From the NCBI GenBank assembly GCA_951406725.2, contig OX597821.1:70184001-70248000 (forward strand): a stretch of DNA of 64,000 bases. Reading direction: 5' to 3'. This document shows positions 1,831 to 51,605 of this stretch, in pieces. This stretch comes from Octopus vulgaris (lineage: Eukaryota). The translations under genes and the position numbers were made by a program. The notes below the pieces were generated by a model. The model had not been told where the DNA came from. It made no database searches and saw only the letters and a program-made list of their open reading frames with translations. Position 1 is the first letter of the stretch; every line of letters begins with the position of its first letter.

Positions 1831-3265
1831 TTAGTACTGGAATGTTTCATTTATGATGACGTACTCTAGCATTTGTCTGTGCGTTGGGTCCTTCGGGTGC
1901 TTAAATAAAATGCGGATGTCAACTTGACCCAGTGTGCCTCTGTTTTGTTCTTTGGCATGTTGATAGAGTATGAAGGATATTATTTTGTCGTCATATTGTC
2001 TCAAATGGTCATTTAGTCTCTCCGCAATGCTTCTAGATGTCTCACCTATGTATATCATGTTCTTGTCTTTAAAAGCAACCTCTATACACCTTATGCTGTT
2101 GACTACATTTCTAGTTCTACAGGTAACGCCTGGGTTAATCTTACATACCGTGCAGTTATCATTGGTGCATGTGGTACTCTCAAAGGGGTACGTCCTACAT
2201 AGTTGTGACCTTATTGAGCTCCCTGTCTTTTCAACGATCTTAAGATTGAGTGTGGCCTCCGTCAGAGACTTCCTAAATCTACGGGCTAGTTTTCCATTGG
2301 ATGTGACCTCTACAAACGTCACTCCTTGATATTTGTTGGTCTTGTACCACGTGTTCATCCTGTTTGTTTTCTCACAAACTCTTTGTATCCTATTCCAGTC
2401 TTTACTTTTCTATCTAGGGTTGGTGCCACTAGTTTCATAACATGTGATGCTATCTATCTTCTTTCTAGCACCCCTGTATATTCGAATCCTATTTTTCTGG
2501 TCACATCCAGAGAATTGCATGCGGTGCGTGAAATTCTGTACACGTTTCTTTGTTTCACAGGATTCGCGTAGTGGGGACACGTTGTTAATTATCCCGAGTC
2601 TGCTATCAGTGTGCTGAGTTTTATAAGCCATGGGTTTCGTGTAATAAGAGCGGAGGAGTTGCACTCTGTTGTTCACACCTCTAACCAAAGTTCAGTATCA
2701 AGGACAGGGTATCTATTGTTATGGTGTCTAGTGAGTTAATCTATAGTTACCTTGATACTTTGGTGGATGGGGTTAGTTACGTGCTGGATGCTCTCCATTA
2801 TGTTCTTCTCGGTTTCTACATTACAGTTACTAGAATTTGTCCTAACTAGAATATTAATGTCATCTACATACCTACAGTAATGCAAATCAGTCGAGGATTG
2901 TTCCACTAAGGATTGTTTAAATTTTCTATCCCACCAGGTCATGAAGAGTCTGGTCTCATCTCCAGCCACACCTTGAACCTAGATGTACAGTTTCTTGTTG
3001 AACTTTACTATGTGGTTCTTCAAGGTGGTTCTTACGCTAGCTCCTATTGCATGAGCAGTCAGTCTTCTCATTCGACTGTTGTTCTCAGGGTCCTGAGTGG
3101 GTGTGGTCCAGGCACTCCAGCGCTCTGCGGTGCTTTCCTTCTCTGTCAAGGTGATGGTGGGTGGTCTTCTCCACTGTGACCAGGTTTTGGTGAATCTAGA
3201 AGCTCCTAGTCCGGATCTGCACGTTGGCAACAGATGCAAGACGGTCGCCTTCCTGAGAGCTGGTG
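1831..3265 (-). mobile_element. Decayed Penelope-like retroelement (RT + GIY-YIG endonuclease)
   Basis: Frameshifted ORFs: LKNHIVKFNKKLYI (RT), YCRYVDDI (catalytic), YTKPMA, C-x4-C-x2-C linker, then CRTRNVV...YIGETSRSIAERLNDH (GIY-YIG). Confidence 0.9.
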
Positions 3266-10279: not shown

Positions 10280-10351
<72 letters not shown>

Positions 10352-10353
<2 letters not shown>

Positions 10354-10788
10354 AGAAATATTGAATTTCTAAATGTCTCAGAGAGACATGAGCGGTGGTG
10401 GAGCGATATAGTGGTCGTATACTATTGAGTTGACAGTATACGACCACTATATCGCTCCACCACCACTCATGCCTCTCTTAGACATTTAGAAATTCAATAT
10501 TTTCAATTTCGGTGATCAGTAAATAAATTTTACTGAAAATAGGATATATTTGCGAAAAGGTTGCAGTCATCTCAGCGAGCGAGACTGGCTACCCTGGACT
10601 GACGACGAGCAATAGACTCAGAAACATATGTCTTCAGGTGCATCTCCCAGCTGGCGGCGGTGATTGCCTCCCCTTTGCAAATATAAGGACACAGAAAATG
10701 TGTCAAAGCCGACAGGAAACGTCGATGTTTCCTAGGTCGAAATGGTGGTGGTGTAATTCCCTTACGGGACTGTCACATTGAGTTGACA

Positions 10789-10793
<5 letters not shown>
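10352..10793 (+). mobile_element. HHR-bearing 353-nt unit with 17-nt terminal redundancy and a 5' inversion, between two (TA)n tracts
   Basis: attgagttgacagtata at 10424 and 10777. 10352-10423 is the reverse complement of about 10435-10507. Confidence 0.8.
10593..10638 (+). ncRNA. Minimal type-I hammerhead ribozyme, canonical core
   Basis: cctgga-CTGACGA-cgag/caataga/ctca-GAAA-catatg-TC-ttcagg. Confidence 0.85.
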
Positions 10794-10850
<57 letters not shown>

Positions 10851-10851
<1 letters not shown>

Positions 10852-11352
10852 ATAGTTATCGGCATACTAATATGGCATTCTTATAAAAATAAGAAAAAAG
10901 CTGTCCGCTTATTAGCTCCATGAGGCCATCGCCTTAAGTTAGCTATTTGATACACAAACTGTATCCATATAACCTTCGAACAAGGGAGGTCAGTCGCTCC
11001 ACACTACTTGACCGGCAGCTACAGACGCGTTTCGGAGTATTGCCCCTTTTCAATGCAGCGTAGCCAGCCAGTAGGTGTCGCTTCCGACAATCTCTGTTCG
11101 ATGGTTTTATTTACCTAGTTTCGGTGGAATACATCCACTTGTTTTCAATAATAGAAATATTAAAATAACTAAGTCTCTCTAAAAGAGAACAGCGGCAGCG
11201 TTCCCGGAAAATAATAGTTATCGCCATACTAATATGGCATTCTTATAAAAATAAGAAAAAAGCTGTCCGCTTATTAGCTCCATGAGGCCATCGCCTTAAG
11301 TTAGCTATTTGATACACAAACTGTATCCATATAACCTTCGAACAAGGGAGGT
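10851..11352 (-). mobile_element. 1.4 copies of a 362-nt HHR-bearing unit
   Basis: 10851-10990 is repeated at 11213-11352. The HHR lies between the repeats and the element starts at a (TA)n tract. Confidence 0.8.
11018..11059 (-). ncRNA. Minimal hammerhead ribozyme (UUGAAAA core)
   Basis: Minus strand: gctgca-TTGAAAA-gggg/caata/ctcc-GAAA-cgcg-TC-tgtagc. Confidence 0.75.
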
Positions 11353-11399
11353 TTGTCCCCTCTGTGTTTAGCCCCTTGTGGGTAGTAAAGAAATAGAAA

Positions 11400-11570
11400 T
11401 AGGCATTTCGTCTGTCTTTACGTTCTGAGTTCAAATTCCGTCGAGGTTGACATTGCCTTTCATCGTTTCACGGCACGATAAATTAAGTACCAGTTGCGTA
11501 CTGGGCTTCAATCTAATCGACTGACCCTTCCCCCAAAATTTCGGGCCTTGTGCCTTGAGTAGAAAAGAAT
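11400..11570 (+). mobile_element. Octopus-type SINE, 5'-truncated
   Basis: tttcgtctgtctttacgttctgagttcaaattccgtcgaggttgac...taagtaccagttgcgtactgg; same family as 57900-58125 and 63317-63476. Confidence 0.75.
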
Positions 11571-12241
11571 ATATACAGACATTAACTGAAAGATACAAAA
11601 AATGTGTAAAATAAGAGGAAGGAAGACATGAAGAGAGGAGGGAGGGAGAAAAGTGAAGAACTATAAGTGGAAGAGAAGGGAGAGAGAGAGAAAGAAGAGG
11701 GAGGAGGAGGAGGCAGTTTCCAGAATTAGTTTCTAAGAAGCGTCTCTCGGACAACTTCAATTCTTAATGGCGAGAAGTTGCTTCGTGTTTGCCTTACTTT
11801 TCAAGTCTTTCTCTCTTTCTCGTCCTCTTCCACCCCTTCTCTCTCTCTCACCCTTAATTACGTTTCTGTTTTATTTTCGTTTCCTCTCACCTTACTCTCT
11901 CCGTCTCCCGTCTTCCTTCCCTTCTTTTTCTCTCTCTTTCTACAATCTAACATTTCTCTCCCTGTTCCCTCTCCCACCATCTTTCTTTTCTTTCTCTCTC
12001 TATCTCTCTCTTCTGTTTATCTCTACTCACTCTTTCTGTCTGCAACATTTCACTTTCGTTGTTTTTATTCATCGATATTTCTAATCTTCCTCACTCTCCC
12101 TCTTTCCCTCTCTATCCCACTTTCTCTTTCCCTCTCTATCTCTGTTCTTTCCTTTATCCTTCTCTATCTTTCTTTTTTATCTCTTCATTATTACGTCATT
12201 ATTATTTTCTCCACCAAAACTGTCTCACTTTCTCTCTTTCA

Positions 12242-16649: not shown

Positions 16650-16812
16650 GTATCTCTCAATTTATATATCTATCTATCACTAACTAACTCTCTCGCTCTC
16701 ACTATATATATTTATATGGGGGGGGGGAGTTCACGAAAAATAAACAAAAGACGAAGGCAGGTGATGTAAAACAAACAGATGTATTAGTATAACGCTCAGG
16801 AATTGAAAAAGT

Positions 16813-16848
16813 CTTTTACGTTTCGAGCCTACGCTCTTCTACAGAAAG
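16813..16848 (-). ncRNA. Degenerate minimal HHR-like motif
   Basis: cttt-CTGTAGA-a-gagc/gtag/gctc-GAAA-cg-TA-aaag; A6U substitution. Confidence 0.45.
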
Positions 16849-16919
16849 GGACACAGAAAACAAAGTGAGAAACAAGGAGAGAAAAAATGTGTGTAGTGGC
16901 TACCAATCCATCATGGCTA

Positions 16920-17338
16920 TATGTATCAGCATGGCGGAGAGGTTAAATGAACGTTTGAGACAATATGACAACAAAAATCAGTCCTCCATACTCTACCAAC
17001 ATAGCAAAGACCAACATGGAGGCACAATTGATCGACTTGACATCTGCGGTTTATCCAAGCACCCGAAGGACACAACAGTCAAGCAAATACAGGAGTACGT
17101 CCCCATGGATGTAACATCTCCTGTACTAAGTACGAGATACGCACAGTAGGTAGTAAAACCCGTATCCCTACACAAGTGTATTTGTTAGTAGGCTGTTATG
17201 TAGATTAATATATATACATACATGGGTAGGTAAATGGGTATGTAAGTAGCCATATGGATAAGTACGTAATTACATGGATAATACGGACAGACAAGTACAT
17301 ACACACACACACACGCATACATACACAAAAGGAGACAG

Positions 17339-17383
<45 letters not shown>

Positions 17384-17400
17384 TACACATACATATGTAT
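16920..17400 (+). mobile_element. PLE GIY-YIG C-terminus plus 3' region, paralogous to about 1540-2030
   Basis: SMAERLNERLRQYDNK...ILYQHSKDQHGGT...KHPKD aligns with ORF 1831-2358; the downstream non-coding sequence also matches. Confidence 0.8.
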
Positions 17401-17545
17401 GCAGATGCACAGAGACAGGGGTACACACACAATTACACATGCACATACACACACTACACACACGCATACATACATACATACATACATACATACATACATA
17501 CATACATACATACATACATACATACATACATACATACATGCATAC

Positions 17546-19140
17546 AATATCACAAAGGGATATTCCAAGGGTCCAGCCTCTCTGTGATGTTTATACTTTC
17601 TGTAAACCCCTCGTCATTCATGTCAAGGAAGTCTGAAGGATATCTCACTGGTTCACAAGGAAGCAGGAATACCAAAATTACACACCGTTTCTTTGTGGAT
17701 GACTTGAAATTTTATGCAAAGAATATGCATGAGATGAAAAAGTGCTTTGACCTAAAGACAACATTCTCAAAGGACGAAGGATTGGCGTTTGGTCTGGATA
17801 AATGTCGTTATATGGTTGTGAAAAGCGGTAAAACTATAAACCAGACTAGTAACATCTCGATCAATGATTTGACTGTTTCCCCTGTATCTGATGAGGAATG
17901 TTACAGGTATCTAGGGGTGGATGAAAATATATCTTAGAAAAAGCACATGTAACAAAACATGTGTCACTTAAGAATATTGCAGGCGAATAAAAAACATTTG
18001 CACCTCAGAACTATCTGTATTCAATAAAACTGTGGCCTACAATGTATTTGCAGTGCCAGTACTCATACCAACATTTGGGCTGCTTCATTGGACGATCGAT
18101 GACATCTGAGCCATTGATGTAAAAACCCGAAAAATACTAACAAGCACACGTAATCTCCACATTAACAGTGATGTATACCGCCTTTACCTAAAACGAAAAC
18201 AAGGCGGTAGAGGTATAACATTAATCCAAAATGCCTTTGAATGTCGCATCATATCCCTTCGGCAACATCTTTTAACCACCAAGCATCGAAGTGCATCCTT
18301 CGACAAAGTTTGCATACATGGGGCTGATAACATCATAAGACTTGAAAGGCAGCTCCTTGAACAACATTCTTTGTCTGATAAACTTAAATACATGCCCTGT
18401 GATGTATTCGATCCTCAAAGCAGTTTATCATAGACCAACAGCCGGATTACTACGTTTCACTTTGAAGGGTATGCGTTTGCAATCCAGGAACAGGTAATAT
18501 CAGCCAAGTACCTGATGCACAAAAGGGATAGAGATGCAGGTAAAACCATAAAGTGTGAGAATCGATGCAGACTTTATGGAGTTCACACTGAATATATCAC
18601 CCACATCATAAGCAGTTGTCCGAAAATGTCATCATGGTAGTATCTACTGATGAGACATGACGTTGTAATGAAATCTGTCGGAAAGATAATCCCGAGGACA
18701 AAGAAATAAGAACCCACAATATGGTAGAAGTCATAGGCACTCATAATAAAAAGGAATACCGGTGGAATGTACCAGTGAAGACCACAATGAAATGTAAGCA
18801 CAACAGATCAGATATTATGATTTGGGTTAGAGAAAATAAACTGTGTACAGTTGTGGAAATTAGCTGCCCTGTGGTGTTAATATAAAGCTGAAGATCAGTA
18901 AAAAGAGAACACCTATGCTGAAGTACTGAGAAATCTGCAGTTACTCTATCCAAATTACAAGTTCAGGTAAATACCTGAATTATTGGGGCCCTGGGATATG
19001 TAATACACTGCCTAAATACCAATCTTCAGAAATTAGGCTTCTCAAAACCTGAAAGGAGAAAGCTAATTCGAACACTACAGATCCAGTCCATCACAGGAAC
19101 TGTAAAATCTGTACAACTTTCCAGAAGTTTATCCTTTCAA
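17546..19140 (+). mobile_element. R4/Dong-type (RLE) non-LTR retrotransposon, 5'-truncated
   Basis: KGIFQGSSLS, THRFFVDDLK, FGLDKC, YRYLGV, GGRG, CCHC remnant (CRL...HIISSC), RHD, HNRSDI. Begins after (TACA)n. Confidence 0.9.
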
Positions 19141-19629: not shown

Positions 19630-21090
19630 TTGAAACACTTTTACTTTTCCCTTTTTTCTTTCAACAAAACAATTTTACTTACTCTTGTTTTTTTTTTCCA
19701 TTTTAATACCTCGGTTTCTTTATTAGCCACAAGGGCCCAAACATAGAGGGGGACAAAGAAGGACAGACAGGACACCACAGAGGGGACAATACATAGAACG
19801 AATATAATAATTAAATCTAATGTCAAAGCAGCCATTTAAACAATGTTCATGGCACAAAACGGCTGCCAGACTACATCAATAATTAATTAAAAAATTAAAT
19901 AGTGAAACAAAGAGCTAGTTTGCTTTAAATTCACACAAAACTGCTTCATACAAGCCTGCTGAGTAACCATTTGACAAAATTTATAGTTAGCCGTCTAATA
20001 CAAGAAATTGGCTACCTGAAAATATTAAATTCATGCACCCTTTAGCTATTTATACAAATTTTAACGTTTATCTTCACAGAAAATAGCTAGCAGAATTATT
20101 ACACAGCCTGCCACTAATGCAGGGTTCACAGTTCACATAAATATTATAACATAACATAACTTAGATTTTTTTTTGTACTCCCCAGATGTGACACAGAAAT
20201 AATTTTAAATCTGATGAAAGTTCTGGCGAATTCCTGGAGCATAAAATAAATCCATAGGTGCAAAGCACAGAGTGCATAAACTAAACAGGCAATCATAACT
20301 TCCAAAATCCAATTTAACAAATTTGTCTCACAGAATAAACAGTCACTAACAAAAAAAAAAAAAACTGGATTGGTAAAATTATCTCTATTTATAAAGTTTT
20401 CCAGGGTGTAGCCAATTTGTCATAGTTTCCCAGTTTTGGCTAATAACTATAGCGTCCCCCATTTTAACAATGGACTCCATCCTTACAGCATGAAAGCTGT
20501 TTTCCTGTTTCCTTCACAGGTGGTTTGAGTTGTTTTTTGTCATAGTGTTAAATTTAATTGATTGTTATGGTTCAAATTGTTGTTAGTCAGTTATGTAGTA
20601 GCTTTTGAGCCTTACATGAGGTATTAAAATGGAATAAATAAGTATGTCAAATCGACAGGAAAAAAGAAAAGGAAAAAGAAAAAAAAAGGAAAAAGAAAGA
20701 GTAAGTGTTTTATGTTATGTTTAATAATATCGGAAAATAGAAGAACAATTTTAGAGAACATATAACGGTTCAAATAACTGTAATGGTAGACAATAATTAA
20801 GTGTTAGTTAAATATATGATAAAAACGGACAGTTTAAAAAGATTAATGGTAATGCATGTGATGAGGGGCGCATGCAGCCATTCATAACCCCATTATTGTA
20901 TAATCATCTCATCATATTCGTTCTATGTATTGTCCCTTCTGTGGTGTCCTGTCTGTCCTTGTTTGTCCCCCTCTATGTTTGGGCCCTTGTGGCTAATAAA
21001 GAAACCGAGGTATTAAAATGGAAAAAAAAAAACAAGAGTAAGTAAAATTGTTTTGTTGAAAGAAAAAAGGGAAAATAATAGTGTTTCAAT
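19630..21090. repeat. ~175-bp inverted duplication (19630-19805 / 20915-21090) containing a LINE-like 3' end
   Basis: ggtttctttattagccacaagggcccaaacatagagggggac and its reverse complement; a diverged third copy lies at 21235-21325. Confidence 0.8.
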
Positions 21091-29207: not shown

Positions 29208-30449
29208 AATAATATATATAGATACATATATATATATTGCATACATATATGCATATATGTATACATATGTGTTTTTGCGTATGTATGTATGTATGTGTGT
29301 ATGTACATCAGTCGATTTATAGATTGAATGTGTACTCCACACACAGTCATGCATGTGTTACACTTCTTATACTAAAACTATGTCTAACAAAACTCTGCCT
29401 TTTAAACTTTGGTAACTCCATTTTAAACGCTGCATGTCCATTTTACACCGTGTCTGATATTATAACTTTAATTATTATTATTTTCTTTGTTAAGAAAGTC
29501 TATTTTGAACTGAAAATTATCTGCTTTTGCTCTAATTTTGCACAACAAGTCGTAGCGAATTGCTAAACTTGGGCGATTGTTCCAAAGCTAGAAAACATTT
29601 TTCCCTATTGCTGTCAAGATGAAGAACATCGATGAGTTCTATAAAAGATTTTGCTGTTCTTCGTATATTCTCTTGCCTACGACAATCACCGGTTTTCGAT
29701 GAAAGGGGTCCCAATGCAAATACTTATATACATAAGCACCTTCCATTTCTTTAAAATTAACGAGAAGGTAAGAATTATAGCAGTGCTTGTGCCCGACATG
29801 CCGGTTCACAGGATGCCATCAGAATACATGGATAGGAGGCCTAAAAGGTTCATCGACGTTGATTTGTGAGCGTGGCTTTGAGTCATCTTTGGGACACAAT
29901 GCAAGCAGCAGACGGTCTTCGCAGGGATCTGCAACAATATGAAATCCTTTCGGATGGCCATGGACATTTAGGTCTTGATGACGTCCGGGTATCACAAGTG
30001 TTCAAAGTGTGTATGTGTGTGTGTGTGTATGAGTTGAGTAGCGTTGTGTGTCTGTGGCGCATGTGGATTGTGTGTGTGTGTGTGTTGTGTAGTAAATGGA
30101 AGAGTGTTAGCATATATGTTATCGGTGCTGTCAATGGAATATTTAAGTACGTATGTCTATGATTTTATACGGTGTGTGTGTGTGTTTGTGTATGTGTGTT
30201 TAAGTGTCGACATGTATGTGTAGTATGTGGTCTGAGAATCTGTCTTGTTGCGCGTAGATATGATGTGTGTATGTGGTGAATGAAGACACGATGGTGGTGT
30301 GTGTATGTTTGTTAGTAATGGAAGAGCTTGGTGTGTTTATATATGTATAACATTTATTGCTGTAGATGTGTATGTGTGTGTGTGTGAGTGTGTGTATGTG
30401 TGTGTGTGTGTGAGTGTGTGTATGTGTGTGAGTCAACATATGTAACTGA

Positions 30450-33362: not shown

Positions 33363-33670
33363 GGAGGCGCAATGGCCCAGTGGTTAGGGCAGCGGACTCG
33401 CGGTCAGAGGATCGCGGTTTCGATTCCCAGACCGGGCGTTGTGTGTGTTTATTGAAAGAAAACACCTAAAGCTCCATGAGGCTCCGGCAGGGGGTGGTGG
33501 CGACCCCTGTTGTACTCTTTCGCTTCAACTTTCTTTCACTCTTTCTTCCTGTTTCTTGTCCCCGACTTCCTACGCAACCGCTGAGCCTGAATTCACATTC
33601 ATCCATCCGTCGATGCTCTCGGTGTCGGGGGTTGACGTTCTTTCTCTTCTGCGGGTCTTACGAATAGCAA
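33363..33670 (+). mobile_element. tRNA-derived SINE
   Basis: A-box tggcccagtgg and B-box ggtttcgattccc; matches 28880-29107. Confidence 0.85.
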
Positions 33671-33793
33671 AGGGTGGGTGTTACTGTAGCTTTTAGCCCC
33701 AGGAGGTCATCGTCTCCACCTGGCTTTGGGCACACTTTCTGTACCCTTATGGTATTTGCAAACGGTTTCCCTTTATCGAAAACCGGTGATTGC

Positions 33794-33837
33794 CGTACGC
33801 GAAGACAGGCAAATACCTAGAAACTGCAGTCCGTGCA
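33794..33837 (+). ncRNA. HHR of unit 1 (1-nt core deletion)
   Basis: cgtacg-CGAAGA-cagg/caaata/ccta-GAAA-ctgcag-TC-cgtgc. Confidence 0.55.
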
Positions 33838-34146
33838 TATCACTTAGGTTGACGAGAGAGGGATGAATTCCCTTTGCAAATACCATAAGGGCACAGAAGG
33901 TGTGCCTAAAGCCAGCTGGAGACGATGATCTCCTGTGGTTAAAAGCTACAGTAACACCCACCCTTAGTGGTTAGCCATATTGAGATGGCTAGTATACTTT
34001 ACGTTGTCGTGCAGTTACTCTTTACATCTCGTTCAGAGATTTATTATTGCTTGCAGACAGTTTTTCGAAATCAGTGACGAAAGTTACTGGAAAAACAATA
34101 AATACGTATTTGCAAACGGTCTCCCTTATCGAAAACCGGTGATTGC

Positions 34147-34191
34147 CGTACGTCGAAGACAGGCAAATACCTAGAAACTGCAGTCCGTGCG
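34147..34191 (+). ncRNA. Minimal HHR of unit 2 (UCGAAGA core)
   Basis: cgtacg-TCGAAGA-cagg/caaata/ccta-GAAA-ctgcag-TC-cgtgcg. Confidence 0.75.
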
Positions 34192-34500
34192 TATCACTTA
34201 GGTTGACGAGAGAGGGATAACTTCCCTTTGCAAATACCATAAGGGCACAGAAAGTGTGCCTAAAGCCAGCTGGAGACGATGATCTCCTTGGGCTAAAAGC
34301 TACAGTAACACCCATCCTTAGTGGTTAGCCATATTGAGATGGCAAGTATACTTTACGTTGTCGTGCAATTACTGTTTACATCTCGTTCAGAGATTTATTA
34401 TTGCTTGCAGACAGTTTTTCGAAATCAGTGACGAAAGTTACTGGAAAAACAATAAATACGTATTTGCAAACGGTCTCCCTTATCGAAAACCGGTGATTGC

Positions 34501-34545
34501 CGTACGTCGAAGACAGGCAAATACCTAGAAACTGCAGTCCGTGCG
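34501..34545 (+). ncRNA. Minimal HHR of unit 3
   Basis: Identical to 34147-34191, exactly 354 bp downstream. Confidence 0.75.
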
Positions 34546-34783
34546 TATCACTGAGGTTGACGAGGGAGGGAGGACCTCCCTTTGCAAATACCATAAGAGC
34601 ACAGAAAGTGTGTCTAAAGCCAGCTGGAGACGATGATCTCCTGTGGTTAAAAGCTACAGTAACACACACCCTTAGTGGTTAGCCATATTGAGATGGCTAG
34701 TATACTTTACGTTGTCGTGCAGTTACTTTTTACATCTCGTTCAGAGATTTATTATTGCTATATATATATATATATATATATAT

Positions 34784-34912
34784 ACGTCATCTGTTCAAAA
34801 GACATCTGACAAACGGTCTTCTTCTTAGCTTCAAAAATGGTGAGATAAATTATTATTTCGACCAAGAAACCCTGGGTAGTTGGGTTTATCAGGATTTGTG
34901 GTTTTTATAATA

Positions 34913-34953
<41 letters not shown>

Positions 34954-34973
34954 ATTTGTGGTTTTTATATATA

Positions 34974-35017
<44 letters not shown>

Positions 35018-35146
35018 TATTATAAAAACCACAAATCCTGATAAACCCAACTACCCAGGGTTTCTTGGTCGAAATAATAATTTATCTCACCATTTTTGAA
35101 GCTAAGAAGAAGACCGTTTGTTAGATGTCTTTTGAACAGATGACGT
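34784..35146. repeat. ~130-bp inverted repeat around (TA)n tracts
   Basis: 34784-34915 versus 35013-35146, near-identical; a short third piece lies at 34951-34975. Confidence 0.9.
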
Positions 35147-45400: not shown

Positions 45401-45729
45401 GATATAGTTTTGTACACTTATGGTACGATTGTTTGTATTATCTATGATATTTATGTTTGTATTAGCTATAAGGAGTACTCCGTCGGTTACGACGACGAGG
45501 GTTCCAGCTGTTACGATCAACGGAACAGCCTGCTCGTGGTCACTTGAACCACTTCAGGCATCCTGACTGGGCCAACAAGTCTGTCCCCACTCAGACTAGC
45601 CAACATGACTCCTCTACCCTGTTGTTGATGTCGTAAACGTTGGTGGTGCTCATCTCCAAAAGAGACCCAACCGTTTTATTCCTTACTCCAGCTGCTGTAG
45701 TCAACTCGAGTTTCTTGAGAACATTACCC

Positions 45730-46995
45730 AAATCACTGATCGCGGATCCTGGGTGGATGCTGTTTACCTGGACTTTGCTAAGGCTTTTAACTCTGTGCCA
45801 CACAAAAGACTTATGGTGAAACTCTCTGCGTTGGGTGTAAAAGACGATCTCTATAACTGGTTGAAGTCCTTTATTATCGGCCGAAAAGAGGTTGTCACAG
45901 TTCTAGGACAGCACTCTTCACCCTATGAGATGACATCTGGTATACTACAGGGATCTGTTCTTGGCCCCCTTTTATTTGTTGCATATGTTAATGACATAGA
46001 TGCCAACTTAAAGAATGCCACAGTGCTGAAATATGCAGATGACATCAAGCTGTACCGCGAAATAAAGAGGTCAGATCTTGTACACTATAGATCTCTATTG
46101 CAATCAGACTTCGACACAATGCAGCAGTGGATCATGGACTGGCAACTCAAACTGGCTGTGGACAAATGTACCACCATGCATTTTGGGAGGAAGAACCCAG
46201 CGTCTACTTACTCCCTCCACAACATTAATCTCAAAAAGTCTTCGTGTGAGCGTGACCTGGGCGTTATTGTCGACATCGATTTGCGTTGGACTAAACACAT
46301 CACTAAAATTGCCAAGAAGGCTGAGGGTGTCTTGGCATCACTCACCAAGTCTTTTGTGAGCCGCTCTCCGGCTAACTATCTGCGGCTTTATATAGCTATG
46401 GTACGACCTCACCTGGAATTTGCATCACCGGTCTGGAACCCCTATCTTGCCCAGGATATTAATCGTCTGGAAGCCGTTCAGCGACGTGCAACCAAGAGAA
46501 TACCCTCCATCAGGCATCTGCCATACTCTGAACGCCTTACTTCCCCGGGCATGGACACATTGAAACTCTGACGTCTGGCAGCTGACTTGGCAGACATCCA
46601 TCAAATTATTAACCATCTTACAAACAATAACTCTGAGCACCTTTTCAAACTCCACCTGTCTAACACCCGTGGATATGTTTACAAAGTCAGAAAACAGCAC
46701 AGCTCCCATGACGTTCGGAAACATTTTTTCACGCTAAGAGTTGCTGAAGCATGGAACAAACTGTCGGCATCAGTTGTTAGTTGTCGGAGCATTGCATCCT
46801 TTAAAACTTCCATGCTTCCTGAGATTCGCCAACACTACACCTGATTTTCTCCCCTCCATACACGCAAGCATGTATCTGACTCACACACTGTTCGCTTTCC
46901 AGACATTTGTACATTACTGCATATACTTTATACGCACTTTTTGACAAGTTGTGGTGCACCTGAGCACTGTATACAATAATTTCATTATTATATTA
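45730..46995 (+). mobile_element. CR1-clade LINE 3' half (RT domain, ORF 45753-46571, plus 3' UTR)
   Basis: AVYLDFAKAF, SGILQGSVLGPLLF, YADDIKL, RDLGV, VRPHLEFA..VWNP; (ATT)n tail. Confidence 0.92.
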
Positions 46996-51264: not shown

Positions 51265-51454
51265 GCTTTACTAGAAATAGGAGTTAAAACGATTCAAAAA
51301 CCACAGTTGTCACTGATACACACTAGAGAGTTCGAGAGAAAATGCAAATAGTAAAAACTAACTTACATGGTTTTTGAGCCGTCTTGGATTTCTAGCAAAG
51401 CTGTGCTTGCTACCCATTTATATTATTATCATTTATTAATAAAAATTAGGCTTA

Positions 51455-51605
51455 CGAGAAAGTGATGGCCTCCCTTTGCAAATACCATAAGGGCACAGAT
51501 AGTGTGCCTAAAGCCAGTTGGAGACGATGATCTCCTGAGGCTAAAAAGCTACAGTAACACCCCCCTTTGTGGTTAGCCATATTGAGATGGCTATTATACT
51601 TTACA
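51455..51605 (+). mobile_element. Dispersed partial copy of the 354-bp unit
   Basis: ccctttgcaaataccataagggcacag...ggttagccatattgagatggcta matches about 33870-34000. Confidence 0.85.

Follow-up and report, generated by a model that had tools for sequence, protein, structure and literature searches.

The insertion at positions 10851 to 11352 of the window analysed here (a stretch of 64 kb of Octopus vulgaris DNA) carries a hammerhead ribozyme motif in which core positions 3 and 8 are occupied by U and A. The question raised by this locus is whether the U3-A8 pair was inherited from an RNA template and reflects selection for catalysis, as was claimed in the preliminary description, or results from decay of a C3-G8 core after insertion.

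The 362-nt element and its hammerhead motif

The proposed 1.4-mer organization of the element was confirmed: its length corresponds to 502/362 = 1.39 units with a single internal junction, and the direct repeat of period 362 described as bracketing a minus-strand hammerhead is identical at 139 of 140 positions, the sole mismatch being G at 10862 and C at 11224 (coordinates of all features are given in Table 1). The repeat register runs 2 nt further left (10849/11211), and positions 10849-10851 can be assigned to either the target or the element. The mismatch at 10862 disrupts a pair of the terminal hairpin that is retained in the two sister families described below, and thus fits an ordinary post-insertion mutation. 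The unit contains no open frame longer than 55 codons and, with its GC content of 0.41, falls within the range of short non-coding retrozymes (about 150-450 nt, GC < 50%). An ORF for reverse transcriptase (RT) and GIY-YIG endonuclease between pseudo-LTRs is absent from the element, for which reason its interpretation as an autonomous Penelope-like element was rejected. Similarly, a tRNA-derived SINE was rejected for want of A and B boxes: no Pol III box of either kind was found in the 362-nt unit or in its 353-nt and 354-nt sisters, and there are no tRNA genes in the window. No target-site duplication, an optional feature of non-LTR retrozymes, was detected (the longest shared word is 3 nt with the TA tract and 5 nt with the far flank).

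Table 1. Coordinates of the 362-nt element, its hammerhead, and related features in the window
Feature	Position	Strand	Remarks
1.39-mer insertion, 362-nt non-coding unit	10851..11352	-	5' end 11352, 3' end 10851
5' partial copy (last 140 nt of unit)	11213..11352	-	terminal hairpin intact
3' copy (again the last 140 nt of unit)	10851..10990	-	three hairpins conserved in sister families
Type I hammerhead	11009..11070	-	stem I extended by 8 outer pairs beyond its 6 bp and a 3/1 internal loop
Catalytic core, nucleotides 3-9	11047..11053	-	U3 = 11053, A8 = 11048
Palindromic stem III (11030-11025) and C17 (11024)	11024..11030	-	predicted cut between 11024 and 11023
Upstream hairpin with second core-like string	11110..11147	-	hairpin kept in sisters, core-like letters not
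(TA)n tract common to 353 and 362 elements	10790..10851	.	elements tail to tail
Piece of another dispersed repeat at 5' junction of 362 element	11351..11393	.	2-nt overlap, left half missing
Homologous 353-nt element	10351..10793	+	1.05-mer 10424-10793 and inverted 73-nt 5' piece 10351-10423
353 hammerhead	10593-10638	+	C3-G8, C10.1·A11.1
Homologous 354-nt unit, 2.8 tandem copies	33752..34759	+	ends on (TA)n; extent with inverted 5' piece 33670-34759
354 hammerheads	34147-34191, 34501-34545	+	U3·G8, C4, C10.1·A11.1
354-family fragments	51446-51604, 29671-29730		

The hammerhead consists of three helices and is open at stem I, of which all six pairs are formed (11059-11054 with 11023-11018). 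Stem II (11046-11034) is paired at four of four positions, including G10.1-C11.1, and is followed by GAAA and stem III. All invariant core nucleotides are present (U4 G5 A6, A9, G12 A13 A14, A15.1-U16.1, and H17), and positions 3 and 8 read as a U-A Watson-Crick pair. Thus the claim that U3-A8 keeps the Watson-Crick pair between these positions holds, the rest of the core and the stems being intact. The 3/1 internal loop and a loop 2 starting with CAA recur in the loop 1 - loop 2 region of all three families; the loop letters of the 362 motif presumably resemble those of the Schistosoma repeat Sm-alpha.

With a strict type I descriptor that leaves positions 3, 7, and 8 free, this motif is the sole match in the 64-kb window. 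When the 502-nt element was dinucleotide-shuffled 3000 times, the same descriptor found no match, and it gave a single match in 25 block-shuffled whole windows, with neither C-G nor U-A at positions 3 and 8. A relaxed descriptor returned eight rows at seven sites, of which those at 11053 and 10599 were examined further; the 354 motif is invisible to it because it lacks UGA. The Rfam hammerhead models do not match the 362 motif at the gathering score or at E values up to 10, and they likewise miss the C3-G8 sister, so that hammerheads of this form evidently escape them; 31 sub-threshold Rfam rows were dismissed as hairpin and TA artefacts. A second hammerhead at 11147-11110 was considered and rejected, since its stem I is out of register, its stem III is non-palindromic, and even the relaxed descriptor misses it. 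Outside the window, bacterial and archaeal genomes scanned for the pattern yielded one match, a Bacillus record without the stems, attributed to chance, and blastn against phages and plasmids produced no match. Two natural open frames run across the core, with codons that would report positions 3 and 8, and no spurious-protein homologue was found for them.

Taken in isolation, the 42-nt motif is of ordinary stability (z -0.82; 38 of 200 shuffles are as good). When folded as a circle, the complete unit has a z-score of -7.8 (0 of 40 shuffles as good), with 64% of nucleotides paired and stems I and II still formed; the controls are -7.1 for the opposite (plus) strand and -5.4 to +1.0 for 25 background windows. 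The palindrome of stem III gives a duplex of -7.5 kcal/mol, and the minimum-energy fold of the dimer is a double hammerhead joined through this palindrome (-52.9 vs 2 x -23.4). We would, with modest confidence, predict measurable in vitro cleavage of the 362 dimer.

The inserted copy contains one complete hammerhead, whereas an active retrozyme has at least two, and it therefore cannot free a monomer on its own. This makes it probably a dead-end, inert offspring, and any selection must have operated in the source lineage rather than at this locus. No second copy of the 362 family was found within the 64-kb window. With the sequence-level features of both a retrozyme unit and a type I hammerhead, the element appears to work like the offspring of a non-LTR retrozyme, and its assignment to this non-autonomous class is very likely correct.

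Homologous families and insertion sites

The 353-nt element, which had been regarded as unrelated, is a distant homologue of the 362-nt unit (nhmmer E 2.6e-8). The two units align end to end and in phase, with 174 of 344 aligned positions identical, and the global alignment has a z-score of 8.5 (0 of 500 shuffles as good; reverse-strand control, -0.6). The 354-nt unit is in turn homologous to the 362 unit (E 2e-4, z 3.1) and to the 353 unit (E 4.7e-12, z 4.2), with reverse-strand controls near 0, and the hammerhead occupies the homologous place in each of the three. Standard CUGA descriptors miss the 354 hammerhead due to its U3·G8, C4, and C10.1·A11.1 states. Its array includes two intact-length hammerheads, while in the first copy a base is missing where the core begins; C4 is found in two of the three copies of the family.

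Positions 3 and 8 form a standard pair in all three families, namely U-A in 362, C-G in 353, and U·G in 354, with no instance of C·A. Stem I is paired in all 24 cells over four intact motifs, although of its 12 bases only 7, 4, and 3 are common to the families in pairwise comparison. In the hammerhead alignment, three of whose five rows represent a single family, pairing is seen in 92.4% of 79 cells, compared with 27-49% in slid controls, and nine of 16 pairs have changes in both partners, a result equalled by 0 of 500 shuffles. The invariant core is identical at 10 of 10 positions between the 362 and 353 families, against 49% identity downstream (P 7e-4), and at nine of 10 in each of the other two comparisons (P 0.02 and 0.02; downstream identity is 49-55% overall). 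The 362 motif is the most canonical hammerhead of the three families. On the other hand, C10.1·A11.1 in both sisters and C4 in the 354 family show that the core varies to some extent within the clan, and on the sequence evidence these non-canonical cores point to a loose constraint on it.

The arrangement noticed at the outset, in which the 362 and 353 elements meet tail to tail on one (TA)n tract, is borne out by the boundaries of both. The 3' ends of the insertions sit just behind a conserved hairpin, at a distance of 173 nt (362 element), 157, 220, and about 171 nt from the cut site in four insertions. Three of these four ends abut (TA)n, two of them on the same tract, while tract edges cover about 3% of the window; the fourth, in fragment 51446-51604, lies in merely AT-rich DNA. 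This fragment ends about 49 nt earlier than the 354 tandem, which suggests two alternative 3' ends for the family, resembling the Penelope 'tail'. At the junctions, element and target overlap by 1-4 nt. Inverted 5' pieces are present at the 353 and 354 elements, and that of the 353 element forms a long hairpin that produces false miRNA scores in Rfam. The dispersed repeat interrupted at the 5' junction of the 362 element has other copies at 20961-21004 and 19715-19757.

The window as a whole is dense in microsatellites (166 tandem-repeat rows, GC 0.25-0.44) and contains broken RT and GIY-YIG frames. Next to the 362 element, a dispersed short repeat with at least five other copies in the window lies at 11402-11582, and a long inverted repeat centred on AT tracts was noticed by eye to the right of the 354 tandem (34820-35100). 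RT fragments are located at 45609-46571 (+) and 17230-17937 (+), matching Pfam RVT_1 with E values of 2.3e-23 and 1.9e-6. Two GIY-YIG endonuclease remnants, at 1831-2409 (-) and 16793-17149 (+), are 57% identical over 63 residues; the former matches Pfam PF01541 (E 3.7e-5), contains a cysteine-rich linker, and is followed by a short TA run that lies about 50 nt past its stop. Both remnants are candidate relics of Penelope-like elements. They share no sequence with the 362-nt unit, and a helper search starting from a GIY-YIG remnant retained none of 280 candidates at E 1e-10.

Origin of the U3-A8 pair

Both 140-bp copies come from one copying event, and thus their divergence dates the insertion. 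This divergence is 0.36% per site (95% upper bound 2%), although gene conversion or assembly polishing could make such a clock read too young. At this rate, 0.15 post-insertion changes are expected in the 42-nt motif, and the chance that two named sites both changed after insertion is about 1e-5 (upper bound 4e-4). U3 and A8 were therefore very probably already in the template, and we regard their inheritance from an RNA template as almost certain. By the same reasoning, decay from a C3-G8 source by two independent post-insertion changes that happen to pair is extremely improbable: both changes would be transitions and the nearest relative is indeed C3-G8, but neither the small number of expected changes nor the intact state of all other core and stem positions agrees with this scenario. 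It is also reasonably likely that U3-A8 is the majority state of the 362 family.

The claim that the pair indicates selection and not decay is therefore upheld in part. Decay in this very copy is unlikely, and the conserved core together with covarying stems across three families is sound evidence that the ribozyme fold was under selection during the evolution of the clan. However, covariation at positions 3 and 8 taken alone is weak evidence for selection: the neutral chance that a C-G pair stays a standard pair at the observed divergence is 0.47 per comparison, and the neutral chance that a double change at these positions is Watson-Crick is 0.35.

The polarity of the hammerhead identifies the minus strand as the RNA. 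In the proposed life cycle, a tandem source locus would be transcribed, and the paired palindromic stem III would join two hammerheads, giving one cut per unit; a host ligase would then close the monomer into a circle. A Penelope-like RT/GIY-YIG protein would nick AT-rich DNA and prime synthesis at an internal hairpin, and at 10851..11352 reverse transcription would have run 1.39 times round a template in which U3-A8 was presumably already present and kept the 3-8 pair of the active fold. The 3' ends, junctions, and inverted 5' pieces fit a Penelope-like protein that starts reverse transcription internally on a template of circular or tandem form. A helper of this kind can be proposed as likely, and the overall reading, a non-LTR retrozyme moved into (TA)n by a Penelope-like helper, is in our opinion quite probable.

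Two further explanations concern the function of the fold and the nature of the template. The same class of element could have a drifting core, with the fold serving as a structural or protein-binding module, cleavage being slow or dispensable, and U3-A8 being a subfamily state reached stepwise. Related repeats may read C at position 3 with A at position 8; the sister cores depart from the consensus at 10.1/11.1 and 4, and pairing of positions 3 and 8 would often be retained by chance. In addition, eight of the nine predicted Xenopus retrozyme dimers reported by Li et al. were inactive, cleavage being detected in one (bioRxiv 10.64898/2026.07.22.740005), and hammerhead mutants did not block in vitro insertion by a Penelope-like protein (PMC11167929). 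A freely drifting core is nevertheless at odds with the identity of the invariant core (10/10 between 362 and 353, and 9/10 between 362 and 354, where the background is about 50%), with the 362 copy being the most canonical one, and with the absence of C·A from all three families; we consider this explanation unlikely. Alternatively, the layout could have arisen with no RNA circle, by tandem duplication at the DNA level, by head-to-tail insertion of two 5'-truncated Penelope-like ends, or by copying of a linear read-through transcript. Penelope-like elements are known to insert as partial tandems (PMC8557442, PMC6765202), and a linear tandem transcript gives the same geometry, the 362 element having just one internal junction. 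At the same time, the period stays within 353-362 nt in three diverged families, which align end to end in phase, the 354 array keeps a single period over its junctions, and the region upstream of the hammerhead holds no ORF and no RT or endonuclease sequence, which makes formation without a circle improbable.

A bolder reading can be offered as a possibility that we hold to be rather doubtful: the three families might belong to a previously undescribed clan of ~355-nt (TA)n-targeting retrozymes, all still mobile, in which the 3/8 pair walked through C-G, U·G, and U-A, the complete series of viable steps. The remaining part of this reading is equally tentative, namely that C10.1·A11.1 was fixed in two families and C4 in one, while a shared three-hairpin 3' module sets the RT start for one helper. 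If true, the clan would constitute a natural allelic series for asking whether the spread of retrozymes depends on cleavage rate.

Comparison with known retrozymes and Penelope-like elements

Penelope-like elements were reported to make up 6.83% of the Octopus vulgaris genome (PMC13282606); ribozymes are not mentioned there, and its supplement names neither ribozymes nor Neptune. No published description of cephalopod hammerheads or of the present sequences was found, and four short strings do not occur in paper full texts; species lists of earlier surveys may already include the 362 family. With the reservation that literature coverage was weak, the element represents an additional retrozyme family, from a lineage in which we found none described.

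Animal retrozymes described by Cervera and de la Pena (2020; PMC7229834) are 170-400 nt long and are expressed as circles. Like the ORF-less non-LTR retrozymes of mussel (350-390 nt) and axolotl (331 and 353 nt), the 362-nt unit has a GC content below 50%, a type I hammerhead with a short palindromic stem III, and a tandem or partial-tandem layout, and its predicted circle is highly paired with an unblocked ribozyme, as reported for animal retrozymes (PMC7229834). It differs from metazoan retrozymes in the U3-A8 core, the single ribozyme, the lack of a visible target-site duplication, and the 3' end on (TA)n. Li et al. tie animal retrozymes to Penelope pseudo-LTRs (bioRxiv 10.64898/2026.07.22.740005), and by their criterion a copy with one ribozyme, such as the 362 element, is a 'monomer'.

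The mode of insertion resembles that of the Penelope-like elements Poseidon PAc, Neptune, and Naiad, which, like the 362, 353, and 354 elements, form partial tandems, have inverted 5' pieces, insert into AT-rich or microsatellite DNA, and have a 3' end set by an internal RT start. Partial tandems, inverted 5' pieces, and a microsatellite bias are reported in PMC8557442, while PMC11167929 shows for a Penelope-like protein that RT starts internally, on the downstream side of the hammerhead, and that targets are AT-rich. The putative RT start lies 157-220 nt after the cut in the octopus elements and about 85-92 nt after it in PAc, the latter by subtraction from the data in PMC11167929. Penelope-like elements differ in having the RT/GIY-YIG ORF, which the 362-nt unit lacks. 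Schistosoma Sm-alpha and newt satellite 2 are similar to the 362 element in carrying type I hammerheads in short repeats, with a stem I internal loop facing loop 2 and a dimer mechanism (PMC6155905), whereas the 362, 353, and 354 units lack their Pol III A and B boxes.

The U3-A8 swap itself is already published for other animals and is nothing new for hammerhead catalysis. Natural compensatory U3-A8 pairs were noted in several ribozymes by Perreault (2011; PMC3088659), where they are stated to have already been shown active in vitro, and Cervera and de la Pena (2014; PMC4209133) counted about 1,300 U3-A8 minimal hammerheads in Schistosoma, with two U3-A8 families and a U3·G8 case in their figure S3. 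These were the only two reports on U3-A8 hammerheads found, the subscription literature being thinly covered. The hammerheads of the Schistosoma Penelope-like element Cercyon display the same covariation at positions 3 and 8, and in family 4 of figure S3 all seven core letters are identical to those of the 362 motif (PMC4209133). Cercyon hammerheads are minimal, with no real stem III, an extra base before stem II, and a short stem I, and lie in pseudo-LTRs beside an RT ORF (PMC4209133), while the 362 hammerhead has canonical helix sizes, an extended stem I, and no ORF. Overall, the 362 element is a young copy and a further example of a known variant rather than a surprise. The U3-A8 core occurs here in a hammerhead of canonical, not minimal, size, and the three homologues, with their three states of the 3/8 pair and a shared 3' hairpin module, represent natural variants with which to ask whether cleavage is needed for spread.
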